Source: Candidatus Bathyarchaeota archaeon (GTDB lineage Archaea > Thermoproteota > Bathyarchaeia > TCS64 > CBFDTC01). From it: a stretch of DNA of 54,810 nt. Position numbers and translations under genes: made by a program. Of this stretch, positions 20,722-38,318 are shown in pieces (the stretch's first letter is position 1; each line of letters begins with the position of its first letter). The notes under the pieces were generated by a model. That model had not been told where the DNA came from, ran no database searches, and was given only the letters and a program-made list of their open reading frames with translations. Location of the stretch: contig CBFDTC010000001.1 of assembly GCA_965612785.1 (NCBI GenBank), positions 1 to 54,810 of the forward strand, in the 5' to 3' direction.

Positions 20722-20869
20722 AGAAGCTCTGGGCTGCTTCTATTCTGTCGCTGAGTTCGTTTATCATCTCCTCCAGGGCGCCTATGCGTTCCTCGATTTC
20801 CTCCAGCCTGTGGTTCAGGTCCTCTATCTGCTCTTCAAGTGCCGCTATCCTCTCCTCGAGGCTGCTCAT
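20720..20869 (-). CDS. 49-aa coiled-coil micro-protein (below the ORF-track cutoff)
   Basis: The ATG..TAA frame translates to MSSLEERIAALEEQIEDLNHRLEEIEERIGALEEMINELSDRIEAAQSF. Leu/Ile occupy an unbroken a/d heptad pattern (positions 4,8,11,15,18,22,25,29,32,36,39,43). It overlaps the last 35 nt of the upstream NTase gene in another frame. Confidence 0.5.
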   Translation of the reverse strand: MSSLEERIAALEEQIEDLNHRLEEIEERIGALEEMINELSDRIEAAQSF

Positions 20870-21962
20870 CGTCGCCACCAAGCCCAAGCTCACTAAAAGA
20901 TAATTTAACCCTATCGCTTCCAGAGGCCAGTTTGAGGCACTGTTCGAAGTACCTCGGCCCGTACGTTAGGGTAACCTGCCTCAGGGAGGCTCTGGGCGTC
21001 CTGTGTTCTTCAAGCCATCCGCACACGACTCCTCGCTCTCCGGCTTTGAGCTGGCCTCTGAACTCCTCCACGTACGACACCACCCTATCCACGTCGGGTC
21101 CCTCTAGGGCTTCGACGTGGTATACGGACGGCATGAACATCGACTCCGAGTCGTCGAGGACCTCGACTACGCACTCCGTGAAGCCGAGGTTGGTTATCTC
21201 CAAGTCGTCGCTGTATTCGTTCGTTATCTCCTCCCACCTCCTGACGGGCTCGAACTCCACCTTCACGGTCCTTCCGAGCCTCTCAGAGTCGTACACGCCG
21301 TATATCATCTTCCTCCTCTGGTACCAGCCGTACTCGGCCTTGCTGTACCTCAAGAACCTCCAGGTCATCGGATGCTCCTCAGGACGCCAACCCTCGAACT
21401 CGTTCCTCAGCCGTGTACCGGGGTCCCTGTACAGTTCTCTGAGCGTCTCGACGAGCCTCCGGGTCTCCCTGATGCCGTACACGGTTAGGTCTATGTCGCT
21501 GTACCTCGGGTTGTAGAAGTCGTGTAATAGGGAGCCGAACACGCCGAAGTCTCCGAGCCTGAGTCCAGAATGCTCTACGACCGTGTCCAGGAGCTCCCTC
21601 ATCGTCTCCACGAGCGGGTCGTCCCTGTCCGACTCGTACAGCCTTCTGAGGGCCTCATCCGGCCTCCTGACCTCGTGTATCTGGTCCTCAGAGACGCCTA
21701 CGAGCCTCCTCCTCAACGGTTTGTAGTAGACCTGGTACTGGGGGAACCTCTCCCTTACGAACCTCAGCCCTCCGTCGAAGTAGAACTTGTAGAACCTCCC
21801 AGCCCGTCCCTCCCTGATGGCCCTTGGGTCCCGGCTGACGTATACGCTCTCGTGGGCGTATTCGAGGTCGCACACCCAGGCTCCGGGTGGATGGTTGTAG
21901 CCGTAGACCCTGAAAAGGAGTCCCTCCTCGGTCACGGGGGAGTCCCTGTCCCTCAGCCTCAT
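20835..21962 (-). CDS. Pol-beta-superfamily nucleotidyltransferase paralog A (uncharacterised archaeal family)
   Basis: NTase motif FGVFGSLLHDFYNPRYSDIDLTVYG (G-S-x10-D-x-D). It shares N-terminal (RDRD..GLLF..GYNHPPG) and C-terminal (VLDDSESMFMPSVYHVE) modules with the two upstream paralogs. Its ATG overlaps the TGA of paralog B (ATGA). Confidence 0.85.
   Translation of the reverse strand: MRLRDRDSPVTEEGLLFRVYGYNHPPGAWVCDLEYAHESVYVSRDPRAIREGRAGRFYKFYFDGGLRFVRERFPQYQVYYKPLRRRLVGVSEDQIHEVRRPDEALRRLYESDRDDPLVETMRELLDTVVEHSGLRLGDFGVFGSLLHDFYNPRYSDIDLTVYGIRETRRLVETLRELYRDPGTRLRNEFEGWRPEEHPMTWRFLRYSKAEYGWYQRRKMIYGVYDSERLGRTVKVEFEPVRRWEEITNEYSDDLEITNLGFTECVVEVLDDSESMFMPSVYHVEALEGPDVDRVVSYVEEFRGQLKAGERGVVCGWLEEHRTPRASLRQVTLTYGPRYFEQCLKLASGSDRVKLSFSELGLGGDDEQPRGEDSGT
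21475..21514 (-). repeat. 40-nt segment identical to 22515-22554
   Basis: ccgtacacggttaggtctatgtcgctgtacctcgggttgt occurs verbatim in paralogs A and B (it encodes NPRYSDIDLTVYG). The flanking sequence is strongly diverged. Confidence 0.9.
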
Positions 21963-23011
21963 GGCCTGTCCACCAGGGGCTTTATGTAGCTGTTTGGGTA
22001 CTCGGTTGAGCCTACGAGAACCCTCATGTACACGCCCCCATCAGCCTTTTCAACCTTCTCGAGCTTGCCTGCGAGCTCTATTTGCTCTCCTTCGTAGGCC
22101 ACGTCGCAGAAAAGCCCCTCGTAGGAGACCACCTCCACAACCGTCTCGGCTTCCCGGGGTCCCTCCAACACCCTGACGTCCTCGACCCTGTACACGGCTG
22201 GTGTGTACATGGCCTCCCGTGAGTCGGAGACGGTTGCGAATGCTCTGACGAAACCGATGGGCCTGTAGGTGCGGTCTCCGTAGGCCTCGGTTATCTCCTC
22301 GTCCGTCTTGGTCGGGTGTATGGAGAACCTCCTGCCTTTGAACAGGCCGTAGTTCCACCTCCTTGAGGCGATGACCCTGACGGTCTTTCGGTCGAGGCCG
22401 AACATACCGGCCCTCCTCACACACCACTCCTCCAGCTCCCTCCTCCCCAGCCTCTCGACGACCCCGTCTCCGCCGCTGCGTATCCAATCCCTTACGCTGG
22501 AGGAGCTTCGTGCTCCGTACACGGTTAGGTCTATGTCGCTGTACCTCGGGTTGTGTATGGCTATCAGTATCGAACCAGTCACGCCGAGGTCCCCCACGGG
22601 CACATCTGCCCCACCCGAAATGGCTTCGGCGAGCTCCACGGTCTGGGCTTCGAGTTCGTCCCTCGGTCCCTCGTGGAGCATATGGGAGAGCCTCTGCTCG
22701 GGCATGTAGTACTTTCTGACGAGCCTCTTCGGGACGAAGGTCATACGTATCTGCCTCACGGGGCAGAACCTCACGTACTCCGGCCTCAAGGCCTGGAGCT
22801 CCTCCGTCATGCGCCGCACCTCGGACACGTGGTAGCGTCTCATGATCCTGGCGTAGGTCACCCCGCCTCTGGACCATATTCCGTCTCCTGGAGCGTACTT
22901 CGGGTACGCCGTGTAGCCGTCTGGGGGGTGGAGGTACCCGGTTAGGCAGAAGAACAGGCCGTCCACCGTCTCCACGTAGTCCCTGTCCTTCGGCTTCCTC
23001 AACCCAGACAC
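21959..23011 (-). CDS. Pol-beta-superfamily nucleotidyltransferase paralog B
   Basis: Motif LGVTGSILIAIHNPRYSDIDLTVYG. Alignment of the N-termini (KDRDYVETVDGLFF vs RDRDSPVTEEGLLF) supports a start at the GTG at 23011 or the TTG at 23002 (TTGA overlap with the stop of paralog C). The ATG at 23059 in the ORF track is less likely. Confidence 0.8.
   Translation of the reverse strand: MSGLRKPKDRDYVETVDGLFFCLTGYLHPPDGYTAYPKYAPGDGIWSRGGVTYARIMRRYHVSEVRRMTEELQALRPEYVRFCPVRQIRMTFVPKRLVRKYYMPEQRLSHMLHEGPRDELEAQTVELAEAISGGADVPVGDLGVTGSILIAIHNPRYSDIDLTVYGARSSSSVRDWIRSGGDGVVERLGRRELEEWCVRRAGMFGLDRKTVRVIASRRWNYGLFKGRRFSIHPTKTDEEITEAYGDRTYRPIGFVRAFATVSDSREAMYTPAVYRVEDVRVLEGPREAETVVEVVSYEGLFCDVAYEGEQIELAGKLEKVEKADGGVYMRVLVGSTEYPNSYIKPLVDRP
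22515..22554 (-). repeat. 40-nt segment identical to 21475-21514
   Basis: See the partner copy. The two copies lie exactly 1040 nt apart at the catalytic motif of adjacent paralogs. Confidence 0.9.
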
Positions 23012-23952
23012 CTCATGTACTCCTCCTGGGTGGCGGAGCCTACCACGAGCCTCGTCCAAGCCCTGCCGTGGAGCTCCGCCCTCTCCAAGAAGCCCCTAAC
23101 CTCGACCACCTCGCCCGGCCGGGCGTACATCCTGTAGGCTCCGACCATCGAGACGACTTCAGAGACCCTCCAGGCATGTTCCCCACCCTCCAGCACCTCC
23201 AGGGTTTCGACTCTGTAGACGGCGGGTCTGAACATGGCCTCCGAGTCGTCGAGGACTCTGCACACCACCTTGGCGGGGCCTATCGGCGTGGCCTGTGGTT
23301 CCTCCTCGATTTCCTCGTACTTTCTCACGGCGTTCACCACGAAACGCCTCCCCATGAACCTCCCCACGTTCCCCCTCCTCGCCTCGTCCTGGGTGGACCT
23401 ACTCAGCTCGAGAACACCCTCCCCCTCAAGCTCCCTTAAGGCCTCCAAGACCCTGAGGTAGTTTCGACCACCGTAGACCGTCAGGTCTACGTCGCTGAGC
23501 TCGTCGTGCATGCCGAGGCATATGGAGCCGTGTATGCCGAAGTCCTCCAGCGGCACCCCGGAGCTCTCGGAGAGGGTCTCGACGAGCCTGACGGCCACCT
23601 CCTCCAGTTCGTCTCTATGTTCCTTCGCCAAAAGCCTCCTAAGAGCCCCGGCCGGCGTGTAGGTCTCCCGTACGTGGCTCAGCGGTGGGGCGACTACGTC
23701 TCTTCGGAGGTTTGGATGCCTGTACACGTGGTGGGGCATGTGCCTCCTGAACGTCTCCAACACGATTCTGTAATGGTTTGGGCTGAACAGCGTCTTAGGC
23801 CTGAGCATGCGTTCCCCACGGAAAACCCAGACCCTGTCCAGCCAATCGAGGGGGAAGAGCTCCGAGATGCGTTCGGGGACGTACTTCAGGAACGCTACGA
23901 CCCTGCCGTTGGGGTGGTGGTACCCGAACGTGTAGAATATCAGTCCCTCCAC
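22999..23952 (-). CDS. Pol-beta-superfamily nucleotidyltransferase paralog C
   Basis: Motif FGIHGSICLGMHDELSDVDLTVYGG. The C-terminal module is VLDDSEAMFRPAVYRVE. The annotated start is a GTG at 23952. Homologous coding sequence without any start codon continues upstream (see findings). Confidence 0.8.
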   Translation of the reverse strand: MEGLIFYTFGYHHPNGRVVAFLKYVPERISELFPLDWLDRVWVFRGERMLRPKTLFSPNHYRIVLETFRRHMPHHVYRHPNLRRDVVAPPLSHVRETYTPAGALRRLLAKEHRDELEEVAVRLVETLSESSGVPLEDFGIHGSICLGMHDELSDVDLTVYGGRNYLRVLEALRELEGEGVLELSRSTQDEARRGNVGRFMGRRFVVNAVRKYEEIEEEPQATPIGPAKVVCRVLDDSEAMFRPAVYRVETLEVLEGGEHAWRVSEVVSMVGAYRMYARPGEVVEVRGFLERAELHGRAWTRLVVGSATQEEYMRCLG

Positions 23953-32985: not shown

Positions 32986-34356
32986 TTAAGTCTTCTTCAG
33001 GGCCGTCTTCAAGGCCTTTTCAGCCGCCAGGGACAGGGGCTCCAGCACGTCGGAGAGCGGAGGCGTGTACCCGAAGTCCGCCCTGGACAGGTCTTGGAGC
33101 GTCATGCCAGACTGTATGGCCAGGGCCATGGCGTTGACCCTGCCCAGAACACCCTCCCCGCCGACCACCTGACAGCCGACTATCCTGAGGGTCTCGGCGT
33201 CCGCCACCACCTTCACGGTCACATGCTTCCACCCAGGGTAGTACTCCGCCCTCGTCCTCCACGTGACCTTGCCGGAGACGACCTCCATGCCGAGCTTTCT
33301 GGCATGCCTCTCGGTCAGGCCGGTTGAGCCTACTTCGATGCCGAACATCTTAGATGCGAATGTTCCGAGGGTTCCTGGGAAGGTGCAGTGTCCTCCGGCA
33401 GCGTTTATCCCGGCAACCTTGCCCATGCGGACAGCCGTTGTGCCAAGCTGTGGCGCCGAGGGGGTCTTCGAGACCATGTGAACCGACTCAGCGCAGTCTC
33501 CGGCGCAGTACACGTCTTCAACAGGCCTACATCTCCCCCTCTCTAACGCCCTGAGTTTCATGTCCGTCTTCAGGCATCTCGTAACTCCCACAGCCAAACC
33601 CATAGCTTCTCCGAGCTCTACGTTAGCCCTCACGCCGGTGGCCACGACGACGATGTCTGCCTCAACTTCCATGCCTCCAGCACACACGGATTTGACATGC
33701 TCGTCACCCAACACCGCCTCTACAGGCTTCTTCAGGAGAACTTTTACCCCCTCCCGCTCGACGACGCTCTGAACCCGTCTAGCCATGTCCGCATCCAGGG
33801 ATGCGGGTAGTATGGAGTCCATGAGCTCGACCACGGTCACTTTGAGACCTCTCCTCCTCAACGCGTCCGCCACTTCTAAGCCCACAGGCCCGGCTCCCAC
33901 GACAACCCCAGCCTTCGCATGTTCCAGCTTCCTCATCACGGCGAGACAGTCGTCCACCGTTCTGAGCGTGTACACCCCGTCGAGGTCCATCCCCTCCACG
34001 GGGGGCTTCCAAGCCCTAGCCCCCGTGCATAGGATAATTGAATCGTACTCGACTTCCTCGACACGTCCGTCCTCCCTCCGTACCGTGGCGACCCTGGACG
34101 CCCGGTCGACGTCGACCACCTTAGACTTAAGCCACAGGTCTATCCGCATGGCCTTGAAGTGGGATGGCTTGTACGTTATGAGTTCCTCCAAGCTCCTTAT
34201 CTCGCCGGATATTAGGAACGGGAGACCACACCTCGAATACGTCGAGTACGGCTCATCCCCCACGACGATGATCTCAGCTTCTCTATCCGTCTTCCTCGCA
34301 AACGAGGCGGCCGTCGCTCCGGCAGCGTTTGCCCCGACGACCAGTATTCGCCTCAA
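32986..34356 (-). CDS. FAD-dependent pyridine nucleotide-disulfide oxidoreductase (NADH oxidase / CoA-disulfide reductase type)
   Basis: FAD motif ILVVGANAAG, single redox Cys in YSRCGLPF, second dinucleotide motif VVVGAGPVGLE. About 456 aa. Confidence 0.88.
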   Translation of the reverse strand: MRRILVVGANAAGATAASFARKTDREAEIIVVGDEPYSTYSRCGLPFLISGEIRSLEELITYKPSHFKAMRIDLWLKSKVVDVDRASRVATVRREDGRVEEVEYDSIILCTGARAWKPPVEGMDLDGVYTLRTVDDCLAVMRKLEHAKAGVVVGAGPVGLEVADALRRRGLKVTVVELMDSILPASLDADMARRVQSVVEREGVKVLLKKPVEAVLGDEHVKSVCAGGMEVEADIVVVATGVRANVELGEAMGLAVGVTRCLKTDMKLRALERGRCRPVEDVYCAGDCAESVHMVSKTPSAPQLGTTAVRMGKVAGINAAGGHCTFPGTLGTFASKMFGIEVGSTGLTERHARKLGMEVVSGKVTWRTRAEYYPGWKHVTVKVVADAETLRIVGCQVVGGEGVLGRVNAMALAIQSGMTLQDLSRADFGYTPPLSDVLEPLSLAAEKALKTALKKT

Positions 34357-34397
34357 GGTTTGACAACTTCTTTTCGGTAAAGTTATATTTTAGACTT

Positions 34398-34943
34398 ATG
34401 GCAGTTAGTCTCGGGTTGCAGCTGGACGAGGAAAGTGTTAGGAGGCTTCTTGCCATAAGGAGAGACCTTCTGGAGAGGGTTTCGGAGCTTGAGGAGGAGA
34501 TTAGGCGTATCCGGGAGGTTGTCAGGGTCATCGAGGAAACCCTCACCGCCCAAGGGTTCAGGAGGGCGGCCGAGTCCTCCAGCGGCCTCGAGGTCCCGCT
34601 CAGGTCTTCGGACGGCCGTCTGCTGGCTGTGATGTACGTGTATGAGGGTAGGCTCAGGATAGTTCCTTCCGGAGAGTTGGAGTTCAGGACCTCCACACCA
34701 CCGTTCAGGTCGTTCCTGATAGACAGGGTTTTCGAGGGGATGAGGAGGGCTGACGAGAGGAGGGTTGGGGAGGGGGCACTCAGTCCGGATGAGGTTTTCA
34801 GGTACGAGGTTCGCAGCGACGGCGACGTGATAAGGTCGATAGAGGTTTGGAACTACGGTGGTGAGCGTCGCCTGGGCGAGATCAAGAGCGCGGTCAGGTG
34901 GACGCTTGAGAGGATGTACGAGAAGACCGCGGTTCGGGGTTAG
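34398..34943 (+). CDS. Hypothetical protein with N-terminal coiled-coil segment
   Basis: I chose the ATG at 34398 over the track start at 34329, which would overlap the divergent oxidoreductase gene. An A/T box TTATATTT lies at 34384-34391. No recognised domain. Confidence 0.55.
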
Positions 34944-35509
34944 CCCTCCACGACGTATCTGTAGTGGACGTACACGCCAGCCGTTGGGCTTTTGCTCGTG
35001 ACTTTGATTATGTCTCCGGGCTTGGCTCCGAGTATTATGGCTATCGGGTCTGAGGCCTTTATCCAGGGGAGCTGATGCGGTTTGGCGTGGTACTTCTTCA
35101 AGACCTCCTCGGCCTCCTCCCTGGAAAGGACTTCATGCTTCGGGACGAGCCTGTGCTTGAACACGTCGAACGCCGGTATCGTTGGCGGTATGAGCTCTAT
35201 AGTGTACCCCTCCTTCGAAACCCTGTTCACCTCCTCCCTCGCCAAGTGCGTGTACCTCCCCTCCCCCACGAGTATGCCGTGCTTGACGTCGTGCTTCTCC
35301 AGAAGCCTCTTGAGCCTCCTTACGTACGTGACCCCGACGGCCTTTTCGCCAGGCACGCACAGGACGATGACCTTCTCCCGGGTCTTAGGCTTCTGGGCGT
35401 GGATTATCGTCATCTCCTCAGACCTCGAGACATCCTTGACCCTGAAGCCCCTGTACTTCAGGATTATGGCCGCCCTCTTCTCGCAGACCTCGGTCGGCTC
35501 GTACTTCAT
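34940..35509 (-). CDS. rpoH: RNA polymerase subunit H (Rpb5 homolog) with an Rpb5-like / restriction-endonuclease-like N-terminal domain
   Basis: The C-terminal 75 aa match canonical archaeal RpoH: [19 protein letters not shown]......[11 protein letters not shown]...[10 protein letters not shown]...SPTAG....YRYVV. Residues 1-112 form an extra domain whose core ([46 protein letters not shown]) parallels the eukaryotic Rpb5 N-domain ([33 protein letters not shown]). The ATG at 35509 overlaps the rpoP TGA (ATGA). Confidence 0.85.
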
Positions 35510-35679
35510 ACAGCCTTCACCCTCTTCACTATCTGGGGCCTTATCTTCACGAATATCCTGCTCATGCACTTGGGACACCTGAAGGACACGGAGGATGAGA
35601 GCTCCTTGAAGGACAGCTTGTACCCGCACATCATACACGCATAGTAAATGTCTTCCCTCGGCTTCTCCTCGGTCTCCAT
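35506..35679 (-). CDS. rpoP: RNA polymerase subunit P (Rpb12 homolog), 57 aa, absent from the ORF track
   Basis: The manual translation is [57 protein letters not shown]. The zinc ribbon CxxC..x16..CPxC followed by RI..K.R matches RpoP. Confidence 0.85.
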
Positions 35680-35720
35680 CGCCTAACTTAGGCGCCAAAC
35701 GACAACTTAAACGTTTTTCA
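35680..35720 (-). promoter_or_regulatory. rpoP-rpoH promoter region: BRE/TATA-like GAAAAACGTTTAAG plus a 15-bp palindrome abutting the ATG
   Basis: The TTTAAG box (35706-35711) lies about 30 nt from the ATG at 35679. The perfect palindrome CGCCTAAcTTAGGCG (35680-35694) occupies the space between the box and the start codon. Confidence 0.4.
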
Positions 35721-35766: not shown

Positions 35767-36336
35767 CTATTCTATCAGAAGAAGCGTAAAGCTTTTGAAG
35801 CCTCTGTCAGGCGTCGTAACCACATCCACGTCGTATCCGGCTTTCCTGGCGGTTGAGAACACGTCTATTCCACACGCCTGCATAGAAGGTCTCGCTTTCT
35901 CCGGATGCAGACACAGTTTCTTATCCTGCTTAGACGCGCAGCTTAACTCTCCGGCTGGACACCGGTCGCACATCGTGCATGTGTTGGCTATGAACGCGAA
36001 TGCCTTGTAGAATCCGTCGAGGAAGGCGATTCTCTCGAGCTCTAACATGAGGTTGTGTATGGATTTCAACCTCCTGGAGTCTTTGATGTCTCTGAACTCG
36101 AAGAGCATGGCATGGCGGTATTCGTCCAGTATCTTCCGTGTCTGTTCTGGGGTTGGAGTGTAGGGTGGACACGTGAAATACTTTCCATAGTCGTCGCATC
36201 CGTACATGCATTTCAGCCTGACCCAATGGCCTACGGTTATGTCCTCAGTGCGTATTAACTTGGCGGAGCTTGCGCCTCTACTCAGTGCATAACTACTCAG
36301 CTTTGAGACCAGTCTTTTCAGCCTCTCATCCATCAT
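35767..36336 (-). CDS. DUF2284-family predicted metal-binding protein
   Basis: The signature ..W.RLKCMYGCDDYGKYFTCPPYTP.PE.T..IL..Y and later C..C..CP cysteines are typical of DUF2284. Confidence 0.75.
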   Translation of the reverse strand: MMDERLKRLVSKLSSYALSRGASSAKLIRTEDITVGHWVRLKCMYGCDDYGKYFTCPPYTPTPEQTRKILDEYRHAMLFEFRDIKDSRRLKSIHNLMLELERIAFLDGFYKAFAFIANTCTMCDRCPAGELSCASKQDKKLCLHPEKARPSMQACGIDVFSTARKAGYDVDVVTTPDRGFKSFTLLLIE

Positions 36337-36362
36337 GCTATGGTCGTAGATGTTGCCGCCCC

Positions 36363-36418
36363 TTTATAAGAACTTCCATATTAGGCTGCTTTAATCCAGG
36401 TAAATGTTTTTTTAAACC
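36363..36418. promoter_or_regulatory. Divergent promoter spacer (DUF2284 gene / AAA+-VWA gene)
   Basis: TTTATAAG (36363-36370) lies about 30 nt from the minus-strand start at 36336. TTTTTTTAAACC (36407-36418) lies upstream of the plus gene. That gene also has an SD-like GGAGAGGTG (36450-36458) 6 nt before its ATG at 36465. Confidence 0.4.
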
Positions 36419-36464
36419 TATAACGCTGTTATGTTTGATTCCTTCGACCGGAGAGGTGTTTCCT

Positions 36465-38318
36465 ATGCTTGATGAGATCGCTGAAATACAGAGGAAGTAC
36501 GGGATAATTGGTCGTGAGGAGGAGCTCAGGAAGGCGATCATGGCGATTAGGGCGGGTAAACACATACTGTTTGAAGGGCCTGTCGGGGTTGGCAAGACCG
36601 TTCTAGCTACAGCGCTGGCCATGCACTTCGGACGTAAAATATACCGAGTTGACGGAGACGAAAGGTACACCGAACATAAACTCGTGGGGTGGTTCGACCC
36701 CTCCTCGGTGATGACCAAGGGATATTGTTGGGAGTCTTTTATTCCAGGTCCCTTGACGCAGGCGATGTTGGACGGGGCCTTCCTGTTCATAAACGAGCTC
36801 AACAGAATGCCTGAGGGAACCCAGAACGTACTGTTGCCAGCGATGGACGAGGGGATCATAGTCGTACCTAAGATAGGCGTGGTCAAGGCCAAGCCTGGTT
36901 TCCTGGTGATAGCCACCCAAAACCCCGAGGAGTACGTGGCCACGAGCAGGCTTAGCGAGGCTTTGAGAGACAGGTTCGTCTGGATACCCCTCGAATACCA
37001 GTCCGAGAGGGAAGAGATAGAGATAGTGCGCAAGGAGACTGGCTGTACGGATGAACGTATAATCACGACGGCGGTTAAGATAGTCAGGAAGACGCGGGAA
37101 GACCCTGAGATAAGGAGAGGTTCATCGGTTAGGGGTGCGATAGACATAACGGCGTTAATCACGGCCAGGACGGGCAGAGACTTCCCGGATCAGGAAACCT
37201 GGGTCGAGGCATCTACCATGGCCCTTGCCACGAAGATAGAGCTTAGGGAAAGGTCGGGTAAGTCTGTTGAGGAGGTCATACGGCAAATAGTGCTATCCGT
37301 CCTCAATGAACAGCAACGTCTGAGGACTGGGAGGTCGGGATCCCCGAAACTCCCAGGTCGTGAGACAGGCCTGGGGGCGGGAAGGTCTGACCTCCCGGCA
37401 ACGTTTGTCTCGCTGGTGGAGAGCAAAGACGTTCAGGGTCTTCTGAAGCTATTCAGACGTGAACCAAAGCTTGCTGGGAAGCTGCTCGCGGATGAGGGTG
37501 TCTTTAATGGCTTTATCCAAGCGGTCGAATCTTCTAAGGCCTTCCTTCCTGGGGCTTGCCTCCTGTTCCTCGTTCAGTCGGAGCTCGACGAAACTAAGAG
37601 AAGGATGGCGAGGAAGGTGCTTGTGAGGATGATACTGGGCCTCGTCAGCAAGGTCAGCTGGAGGGGGCTGCAGCCAACGGAATACGTCAACGTCCCCTTC
37701 AGGCCGGGTTTGGAGGAGATAGACCTGGAGGAGACTCTCGAGAACGTGTTGGGGAAGGGGGCTCCCAGCCTCGAAGATATAGTGTGCAGGGAGAGGGTGA
37801 GGAAGAGGAGGGCCGCTGTCCTGCTGTTAGACGTGAGCAACTCCATGCAAGGGGAGAGACTGGTTGTGGCCACGGCCGCCGTGGGGGTTCTAGCCCGCAA
37901 GTTCGAGGACGACGACTATGCGGTGGTGGTCTTCAGGGACAGAGCCAGGGTTCTCAAGTCCATGCGGGAGCATGTGGACTGCGAGGAGCTGGTGGAGAGG
38001 CTTCTGGACGTGGAGTTCGGAGGCTCCACGGACATAAAGAAGGCTTTAGAGACCGGCCTCAGAGAACTCGACTCCGTTCAGGCAAAGGTGAAGTTCGGCG
38101 TCATAGTGACGGACGGGTGGGTTACTAGGGGCGGAGACCCCGTGGAGGTGGCCGGTATGTACCCTAGGCTACACGTCGTCGAGGTGCCAATGGGCCCCGC
38201 TGGGGGAGACTCCGAGATGTGCGCGAAGATGGCTGAGGCGGGGAGAGGGAAACACATGCGTGTTCACGACTTTAGAGACCTGCCTATGGCCTTGTCTAAG
38301 CTCCTCAGGGAGTGCTGA
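36465..38318 (+). CDS. Fused MoxR-like AAA+ ATPase / long linker / von Willebrand factor A (VWA) domain protein (ChlD-like architecture)
   Basis: The AAA+ part has Walker A GPVGVGKT, Walker B FLFINELNR, and ATQNPEE..SEALRDRF. The C-terminal part has a MIDAS motif LLLDVSNSM. I chose the ATG at 36465 with its SD-like sequence. The 65-codon upstream extension in the ORF track overlaps the divergent gene and promoter. Confidence 0.85.
   Translation: MLDEIAEIQRKYGIIGREEELRKAIMAIRAGKHILFEGPVGVGKTVLATALAMHFGRKIYRVDGDERYTEHKLVGWFDPSSVMTKGYCWESFIPGPLTQAMLDGAFLFINELNRMPEGTQNVLLPAMDEGIIVVPKIGVVKAKPGFLVIATQNPEEYVATSRLSEALRDRFVWIPLEYQSEREEIEIVRKETGCTDERIITTAVKIVRKTREDPEIRRGSSVRGAIDITALITARTGRDFPDQETWVEASTMALATKIELRERSGKSVEEVIRQIVLSVLNEQQRLRTGRSGSPKLPGRETGLGAGRSDLPATFVSLVESKDVQGLLKLFRREPKLAGKLLADEGVFNGFIQAVESSKAFLPGACLLFLVQSELDETKRRMARKVLVRMILGLVSKVSWRGLQPTEYVNVPFRPGLEEIDLEETLENVLGKGAPSLEDIVCRERVRKRRAAVLLLDVSNSMQGERLVVATAAVGVLARKFEDDDYAVVVFRDRARVLKSMREHVDCEELVERLLDVEFGGSTDIKKALETGLRELDSVQAKVKFGVIVTDGWVTRGGDPVEVAGMYPRLHVVEVPMGPAGGDSEMCAKMAEAGRGKHMRVHDFRDLPMALSKLLREC

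Follow-up and report, generated by a model that had tools for sequence, protein, structure and literature searches.

The rpoP-rpoH locus

We analyzed a stretch of 54,810 nucleotides (nt) from a Candidatus Bathyarchaeota archaeon (contig CBFDTC010000001.1, positions 1 to 54,810; hereafter the window), with a focus on two adjacent minus-strand genes for small subunits of RNA polymerase. The upstream gene, rpoP (35506-35679), encodes a 57-amino-acid (aa) homologue of Rpo12/Rpb12 with a zinc ribbon formed by C15, C18, C35 and C38. The downstream gene, rpoH (34940-35509), encodes an Rpo5 of 189 aa and ends in a TAA stop codon. Two domains make up this Rpo5. Residues 113-189 (34943-35173, minus strand) are a canonical RpoH, equivalent to the C-terminal domain of eukaryotic Rpb5, and residues 1-112 (35174-35509, minus strand) are predicted to adopt a catalytically dead Mrr-type PD-(D/E)XK fold that resembles the N-terminal domain of Rpb5 (Rpb5-N). 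The two-domain subunit is therefore a candidate archaeal counterpart of Rpb5, and the evidence for and against this reading is set out below.

The stop codon of rpoP and the start codon of rpoH overlap in the tetranucleotide ATGA (35506-35509, minus strand). This overlap, a sign of translational coupling, can be read directly from the sequence and bears out what had been noted in a preliminary description of this DNA. A Shine-Dalgarno-like motif, GAGGGTGA (35517-35524, minus strand), lies 7 nt 5′ of the rpoH ATG, and its putative function follows from the general archaeal anti-Shine-Dalgarno sequence. Further upstream, a TATA-like TTTAAG (35706-35711, minus strand) is found about 29 nt 5′ of the rpoP ATG and is itself preceded by an A-rich stretch resembling a transcription factor B recognition element (BRE). 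The spacing between TTTAAG and the rpoP start codon fits the known geometry of archaeal BRE/TATA promoters with a nearly leaderless transcript, and we regard TTTAAG and the A-rich stretch as the putative promoter of such an rpoP-rpoH transcript. The start of rpoH coincides with the start position of the family alignment (119 sequences), and the same 189-aa product was called by gene callers on four independent contigs. A 252-aa reading of rpoH initiated at a TTG was considered and discarded; it would overlap rpoP in another frame and is supported neither by the homologues nor by the four gene calls. The GC content is 56.1% in the rpoP-rpoH region and 58.7% in the window, so that the composition shows no sign of foreign origin.

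The assignment of the 57-aa open reading frame (ORF) as rpoP, which had been proposed from the letters alone, was confirmed by a profile of 12 orthologues from related loci. The best match of this profile to a solved structure was T. kodakarensis RpoP/Rpo12 (4qiw_P, 3e-10); it also matched 2pmz_P (8e-8), P. furiosus and Sulfolobus Rpo12 and then eukaryotic Rpb12. The four cysteines are invariant among the orthologues. As a single sequence, the protein matched Pfam Zn_ribbon_RPAB4 weakly (E 0.009) and stayed below the NCBIfam RpoP equivalog cutoff (best 40.2 bits vs 84). Because an rpoP homologue was found directly upstream of the long, two-domain rpoH in 47 of 91 loci, much of the two-domain RpoH family shares rpoP-rpoH as a conserved operon. 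The pairing was not found in the Asgard loci examined.

The identity of the C-terminal domain is clear. Residues 114-186 matched RNA_pol_Rpb5_C (PF01191; 9e-31, 105.9 bits, cutoff 23.5) and the NCBIfam RpoH equivalog NF007129 (109.4 bits, cutoff 83), and these matches bear out the earlier description of residues 113-189 as a textbook RpoH. In Foldseek, the modelled domain superimposed on solved archaeal RpoH (9bct_H, 8cro_H and 7ok0_H) with target-normalised template modelling (TM) scores of 0.89-0.93 and root-mean-square deviations of 1.0-1.4 Å; sequence identity to solved archaeal RpoH was 54-61%. Compared with canonical archaeal RpoH/Rpo5 (about 75-90 aa; 4qiw_H, 8cro_H, 7ok0_H), the window protein is orthologue-like over its C-terminal 77 residues but adds 112 N-terminal residues that form a folded domain. 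In addition, its gene is paired with rpoP instead of lying upstream of rpoB.

The N-terminal domain and its relationship to Rpb5

Residues 10-107 matched Pfam Mrr_cat (PF04471) with 37.8 bits (cutoff 21), and the same family was matched by 119 of the 119 members of the RpoH family alignment. The N-domain also matched NA-iREase1 (PF22722; 33.9 bits, near the cutoff), an inactive restriction-endonuclease family. AlphaFold2, run with the 119-sequence alignment, modelled the whole chain with a mean predicted local distance difference test score (pLDDT) of 93.9 and a predicted TM score of 0.86, and modelled the N-domain alone with a pLDDT of 95.3. The 112 additional residues singled out in the preliminary description therefore form a real domain, and the restriction-endonuclease-like fold suggested for them holds in Pfam, profile and structure comparisons.

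For a closer comparison, Mrr-like proteins were drawn by an N-domain profile from 1.84 billion representatives. Their consensus in the alignment reads FE...DGGiD...lvQCK...VGV..VREL. The RpoH-linked domain retains the helix-1 Glu and the VGV..VR.L helix of Mrr; the catalytic D and (E/Q)xK are gone, with no conserved Asp in the family and Cys/Trp-x-Pro in place of the Mrr Gln-x-Lys. Because the catalytic Asp and Gln/Glu-x-Lys are lost, the N-domain is best regarded as a structural module and not as a nuclease, that is, as a Mrr-type PD-(D/E)XK fold that is catalytically dead as judged from its sequence. It further differs from Mrr-type nucleases in that the protein has no DNA-recognition domain and the nuclease-like domain is fused to a polymerase subunit. 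The fusion of an Mrr-like domain to RpoH had been offered earlier as an alternative to an Rpb5-like subunit; it proved correct, and the two descriptions turned out to denote the same thing. The domain is also under purifying selection and appears to be translated. Across 214 pairs of related genes, the ratio of nonsynonymous to synonymous substitution rates (dN/dS) was about 0.10 for the N-domain codons and 0.05 for the C-domain codons. The 119 sequences share 15 invariant columns over the full-length protein, and E10, R20, G59, Y86 and T87 of the N-domain are near-invariant among them.

Four lines of sequence evidence, independent of one another and in agreement, connect the N-domain with Rpb5-N. 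BLASTP aligned window residues 29-186 with residues 54-209 of human Rpb5 (28% identity, two gaps, E 3e-22), and the alignment runs through the linker; the human and yeast Rpb5 sequences that we used are 100% identical to the PDB chains. The line-up of the N-domain core with an Rpb5 segment, which had been drawn by eye from the letters, was thus reproduced by plain BLASTP. A profile of the full-length family found plant Rpb5 as its best match in the PDB (1.2e-32, profile positions 26-181), above solved archaeal RpoH. We then excluded the RpoH part and scanned 177,635 distinct PDB sequences with a profile built from 30 N-domains only. Its significant matches were all Rpb5 (Drosophila, 2.3e-5; human, 1e-3; Arabidopsis, 5e-3), and no restriction enzyme or nuclease was significant among these PDB sequences.

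Profile-profile comparison with hhalign gave a graded series. Archaeal N-domains reached a probability of 96.7% against eukaryotic Rpb5-N (P 3.7e-10, 84 columns), with 97.0% for the Heimdallarchaeia domains (P 8e-11, 87 columns) and 92.2% for the Bathyarchaeia domains (P 5.9e-7, 80 columns). Against Mrr, the archaeal N-domains scored 99.4% (P 5e-22, 98 columns), and Rpb5-N itself scored 92.7% (P 4.3e-7, 42 columns). This series places the archaeal N-domain between Mrr and Rpb5-N. The archaeal motif C-x-P-G-E and the eukaryotic motif F-F-P-E-E have in common a Pro at the position of the former catalytic Lys. Heimdall-type proteins, moreover, gave sub-threshold matches to Pfam Rpb5_N that are in register (E 0.004-0.03, 15-18 bits vs the cutoff of 27).

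The predicted structure agrees with these results. When the full-length model was used as the query in Foldseek, the top 34 PDB matches were all Rpb5-type chains (cellular ones and two homologues from African swine fever virus (ASFV)) and covered both domains. The whole-chain, query-normalised TM score was 0.70-0.81 to more than 30 Rpb5 chains, and solved archaeal RpoH chains covered the C-domain only (TM 0.39 by query). With the N-domain model alone, the highest TM scores were again those of Rpb5 chains (0.65-0.70). The Rpb5 homologues of nucleocytoplasmic large DNA viruses (ASFV 8q3b_E, vaccinia 6rfl_E) are also two-domain chains, and the ASFV chain reached a TM score of 0.72 to the model; these proteins are, however, viral and far more divergent (13-20% identity). 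Eukaryotic Rpb5 (RPABC1, a subunit of Pol I, II and III) thus has the same plan as the window protein, an inactive PD-(D/E)XK N-domain that has lost its catalytic residues followed by an RpoH-like C-domain. Overall, the profile matches (2e-5 for the N-domain alone), the hhalign scores of 92-97% and the TM score of 0.81 support the full-length Rpb5-like subunit of the preliminary description, and the sequence comparisons support a specific relationship between the N-domain and Rpb5-N.

Several observations weigh against such a relationship. The window protein had no match to Pfam RNA_pol_Rpb5_N (PF03871) at E ≤ 10, whereas the human Rpb5 control scored 120 bits, and at least 118 of the 119 family members did not match this family either. 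Therefore, of the Pfam and structure check that had been suggested, the Mrr_cat match and the superposition on Rpb5 were obtained and the threshold of RNA_pol_Rpb5_N was not reached. The archaeal N-domains are much closer to Mrr_cat than to Rpb5_N in hhalign, and with the N-domain model alone EndoMS and MspJI came out slightly ahead of Rpb5 by Foldseek E-value. AlphaFold was trained on Rpb5 structures, and the predicted inter-domain orientation is therefore not independent evidence. In addition, the helical insertion of about 25-30 residues that eukaryotic Rpb5 carries between helix 1 and strand 1 is absent, and human residues ~27-55 stand opposite a gap or short loop in the window protein.

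The two-domain protein was not confined to this organism, as might have been thought from a single locus, but belongs to a large conserved family. An initial protein search gave 376 relatives; among the top 120, almost all were 170-198 aa long with both domains, and those that carried an organism name were Bathyarchaeota. A genome survey with one genome per GTDB species yielded at least 497 RpoH relatives, and the best 80 were inspected. All 80 were full-length two-domain proteins whose contigs either bear a Bathyarchaeia label or look like Bathyarchaeia; 77 were labelled Bathyarchaeota, Bathyarchaeia or Bathyarchaeales, closed chromosomes included; one was labelled 'uncultured archaeon' and two were in bacterial bins. 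A profile of divergent representatives added members of Candidatus Kariarchaeaceae, Heimdallarchaeota/Heimdallarchaeaceae and Jordarchaeales. The distribution survey that had been called for thus found the two-domain RpoH widely in Bathyarchaeia and also in Heimdall, Kari and Jord lineages, and by this sequence survey Bathyarchaeia and several lineages of Asgard archaea have the two-domain subunit as their standard form. The nearest named relatives of the window protein are only 53-54% identical to it. In a simple and weakly informative neighbor-joining (NJ) tree, the window protein fell with a Bathyarchaeia subclade; the same tree showed the eukaryotes as one long branch beside two unnamed archaeal lineages, a placement to which we attach no weight.

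Some members of the family depart from the two-domain plan. In four RpoH relatives of 293-481 aa (P0153, P0176, P0241 and P0270), which are closest to the Heimdall/Kari forms, the RpoH domain follows a tandem array of two or three dead-nuclease domains, and three tandem N-domains occur in the eukaryote-like Rpb5 P0197. P0200 (561 aa) is a two-domain RpoH with an insertion of about 370 residues in the C-domain, between the 'LP.I' and 'DP' motifs. The Heimdallarchaeia proteins P0358, P0378, P0154 and P0376 have C-terminal tails of 30-90 residues rich in Lys, Thr, Ala and Glu, one of which gave a weak histone-H1-like HC2 match (E 3e-4). Short proteins that seemed to consist of the N-domain only were rejected as stand-alone domains, as they proved to be truncated, frameshifted or chimeric gene calls. 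Two Bathyarchaeia-type rpoP-rpoH contigs, L026 (DATKWY010000300.1) and L034 (DATKWN010000049.1), are binned in metagenome-assembled genomes labelled Candidatus Desulfaltia and Krumholzibacteriaceae, probably through binning contamination.

A relationship to Rpb5-N at the level of the superfamily only would follow if a genuine archaeal Rpo5 had acquired its dead Mrr-type domain independently of eukaryotic Rpb5. The far better scores of the archaeal N-domain against Mrr_cat than against Rpb5-N are in keeping with such a convergent fusion, and so are the Foldseek E-values of MspJI and EndoMS, which for the N-domain are as good as that of Rpb5. The distribution of the long form is patchy, with Odin/Baldr-type rpoB loci keeping a short rpoH at rpoB, and the NJ tree puts the eukaryotes inside no named Asgard clade. 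However, domain order and linker are identical in the archaeal and eukaryotic proteins, and the alignment is collinear through both domains. The N-domain profile retrieved only Rpb5 from the PDB and not the solved Mrr-type nucleases, and the alignment of Rpb5-N with the archaeal N-domain is better and longer (84-91 columns) than that with Mrr (42 columns). The common Pro and the Heimdall forms, which are the most Rpb5-like, likewise speak against two separate fusions. Taken together, we consider an independent origin unlikely, although it deserves to be taken seriously.

Position of rpoH relative to rpoB

The gene had been described as not adjoining rpoB or rpoA, and this was borne out: neither an RpoA or RpoB motif nor a second Rpb5_C ORF was found in the 54.8-kb window. 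No RpoA′, RpoA″ or RpoB motif was found in the 91 related loci with their 6-10 kb flanks. In the lineage of protein P0189, a divergent rpoB-rpoA operon is found 4.7 kb away from the long rpoH. In this lineage, the usual place of rpoH upstream of rpoB is taken by a tRNA-Lys(UUU) gene (L092, 3334-3408, minus strand), and a hidden Markov model search at maximum sensitivity detected no Rpb5_C ORF other than the long rpoH at this locus.

The RpoB of the P0189 lineage was used to seed a metagenome scan, which gave 80 rpoB loci (L096-L175). By exact-sequence look-up, the representative RpoBs belong to Bathyarchaeia (three independent clusters), Hermod/Hod/Thorarchaeota and Odin/Baldrarchaeota. To count as Bathyarchaeia-type, a locus needed an RpoB with 82% or more identity to the Bathyarchaeia references and 400 bp or more of sequence upstream; many of these loci extend 10 kb to each side. 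An Rpb5_C ORF was absent near rpoB in all of them (40 of 40), and the three Hermod/Thor-type loci (Hermod/Hod/Thor) likewise had no rpoH at rpoB. At six Odin/Baldr-type loci, a short canonical rpoH abuts rpoB. In Bathyarchaeia the canonical position is therefore empty, and no rpoH other than the two-domain gene was seen. A canonical rpoH in the rpoB operon, which had been envisaged as the sign of a non-polymerase paralogue, was thus looked for and found neither at the Bathyarchaeia-type loci nor in the P0189 lineage. A published survey of gene clusters in Asgard archaea gives a matching picture, as the conserved core begins at rpoA1 and does not contain rpoH (PMC10833476).

Other observations point in the opposite direction. 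A short rpoH is present at three loci whose RpoB shares only 70-74% identity with the Bathyarchaeia references, and a Bathyarchaeota Rpo5 accession has been listed two genes from Rpo1 (PMC13257274). Our survey covered rpoB loci and the best 80 of at least 497 RpoH relatives, among which a weaker second copy would not show up, and a second, divergent rpoH elsewhere in the genome is possible, the genome of the window included. If a canonical RpoH of this kind served the polymerase, the long protein could be a paralogue outside the polymerase, a nuclease-derived or defence factor with an RpoH-like domain. Defence proteins often contain Mrr_cat and NA-iREase1 domains, and the long gene never adjoins rpoB or rpoA in the 91 loci. 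Nevertheless, the C-domain is conserved like that of an orthologous RpoH, with 54-61% identity and a score above the NCBIfam equivalog cutoff, and the catalytic residues expected of a nuclease are lost. Linkage and translational coupling tie the gene to rpoP, its neighbors in the family are housekeeping genes and not defence islands, and all 40 Bathyarchaeia-type loci lack an rpoH adjoining rpoB or in its vicinity. A role outside the polymerase is therefore very improbable in our opinion.

The size of the product also had to be considered. An in-frame GTG codon for V116 lies at 35162-35164, and inspection of the sequence revealed no Shine-Dalgarno-like site 5′ of it. The 91-aa NCBI record MFQ6074875.1 (P0525), annotated as RpoH [Bathyarchaeia], corresponds exactly to residues 99-189 of the 189-aa protein P0223; annotation can thus hide the N-domain through the choice of an internal start. 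Although this record and the GTG could be taken to mean that translation begins only at V116 or at some other internal codon and yields just the short C-terminal part, with the 112 upstream codons untranslated or vestigial, we hardly credit this idea, given the dN/dS of about 0.10 over the 214 pairs, the invariant and near-invariant residues of the 119 sequences, the N-domain model with a pLDDT of 95, the Shine-Dalgarno-like site 7 nt before the upstream ATG and none before the GTG, and the coupling of that ATG to the rpoP stop codon.

The surroundings of the operon were inspected as well. A convergent ORF on the plus strand (34329-34943) runs 4 nt into rpoH at its stop codon; no Pfam family matched it, and a 175-aa gene is called from it on all four contigs bearing the locus. 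On the other side (35767-38318), rpoP has a DUF2284 gene as its immediate upstream neighbor, followed by a divergent MoxR-type AAA+/VWA protein. These neighbors recur in the four contigs of the species, and an AAA_3 and VWA pair also adjoins the long rpoH in the P0189 lineage (L092). Elsewhere, the window is dominated by a near-complete archaeal set of Wood-Ljungdahl genes, which lies on both strands at positions 9181-32000. The set includes genes for a CooC-like ATPase, two CdhD-family proteins (probably CdhD and CdhE), RACo, CdhC and CdhA (787 aa), together with a MTHFR-like gene, RimK-like ATP-grasp genes, subunits of formylmethanofuran dehydrogenase (Fwd), Ftr and Mch. Between the MTHFR-like gene and the ATP-grasp/Fwd genes lie three consecutive minus-strand ORFs of 375, 366 and 317 aa (20835-23952) with no Pfam match at E ≤ 1e-5. 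Scans for tRNA genes and Rfam families detected no tRNA gene and no family at its gathering score in the whole window (1-54810).

A model for the two-domain Rpo5 and the origin of the Rpb5 jaw

Overall, after weighing these data, we favor the explanation that the window protein is a genuine Rpo5 with a dead Mrr-type domain and that this domain corresponds in archaea to the jaw domain of Rpb5, of which it is probably the ancestral form; we put the probability of this explanation at roughly three in four. In the putative mechanism, a single promoter before rpoP would drive both genes, and the ATGA overlap and the Shine-Dalgarno-like site would couple the translation of rpoH to that of rpoP. Co-transcription and coupling may in this way keep the two small polymerase subunits at matched levels. 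The C-domain would bind the largest subunit in the manner known from solved archaeal enzymes, and the N-domain would lie at the lower jaw, next to the downstream DNA, and serve there as a structural block, as suggested by homology and the predicted structure. Incorporation into the polymerase, the position at the jaw and contact with DNA are all features of this model.

In Pol II, Rpb5-N forms a 'guard rail' and sits where Rpo13 lies in Sulfolobus (PMC3479171), and the N-domain of the window protein may fill the same void. By analogy, Rpo13 of Sulfolobales would occupy an equivalent space, between Rpo5 and the clamp head of Rpo1N by the downstream DNA; it differs in having an unrelated fold and a separate gene. 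Rpb5-N is described as a guide for downstream DNA and as a docking site for TFIIB, TFIIF and the viral HBx, and has been said in reviews and structural papers to be absent from all archaea (PMC3479171, PMC3906176). In one paper, Rpo13 has been proposed as a 'fossil' that was replaced by the Rpb5 N-domain (PMC3479171, PMC3906176).

As to evolution, we lean towards the view that the N-terminal jaw domain of Rpb5 is an archaeal invention that was fused to RpoH before eukaryogenesis and inherited by eukaryotes, with the window protein as a relative of the ancestor. According to this model, RpoH gained a dead Mrr-type domain, and its gene moved out of the rpoB operon, before eukaryotes arose. Bathyarchaeia and several lineages of Asgard archaea would have retained the two-domain subunit, which is most similar to Rpb5 in Heimdallarchaeia, and we infer that eukaryotic Rpb5-N descends from such an archaeal form. 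The N-domain of the window protein can still be recognised as Mrr_cat, which sets it apart from that of eukaryotic Rpb5.

This view differs from the published picture. Textbooks treat the N-domain of Rpb5 as eukaryote-specific. Rpb5-N was classed as a PD-(D/E)XK fold restricted to eukaryotes (PMC3424549), a 2012 paper stated that the domain is found in no archaeon, and a 2014 study described RpoH as lacking an N-terminal extension (PMC3906176). A 2026 survey of archaeal polymerase subunits covered variation in Rpo6 and Rpo8 and did not cover a two-domain Rpo5 (PMC13257274). We found no description of a two-domain archaeal RpoH in open-access papers or on bioRxiv; the domain matches are already in public databases and have apparently gone uninterpreted. 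Annotation pipelines sometimes truncate the two-domain genes so that they look like short RpoH, and such genes will escape gene-order studies in which rpoH is expected next to rpoB.

The finding is of high interest for researchers working on archaeal transcription and eukaryogenesis. If our explanation is true, one more piece of eukaryotic polymerase architecture moves back into the archaea, and the Rpb5 N-domain gains a concrete origin in an inactivated Mrr nuclease. The function of the jaw domain would then be testable in a simpler system.

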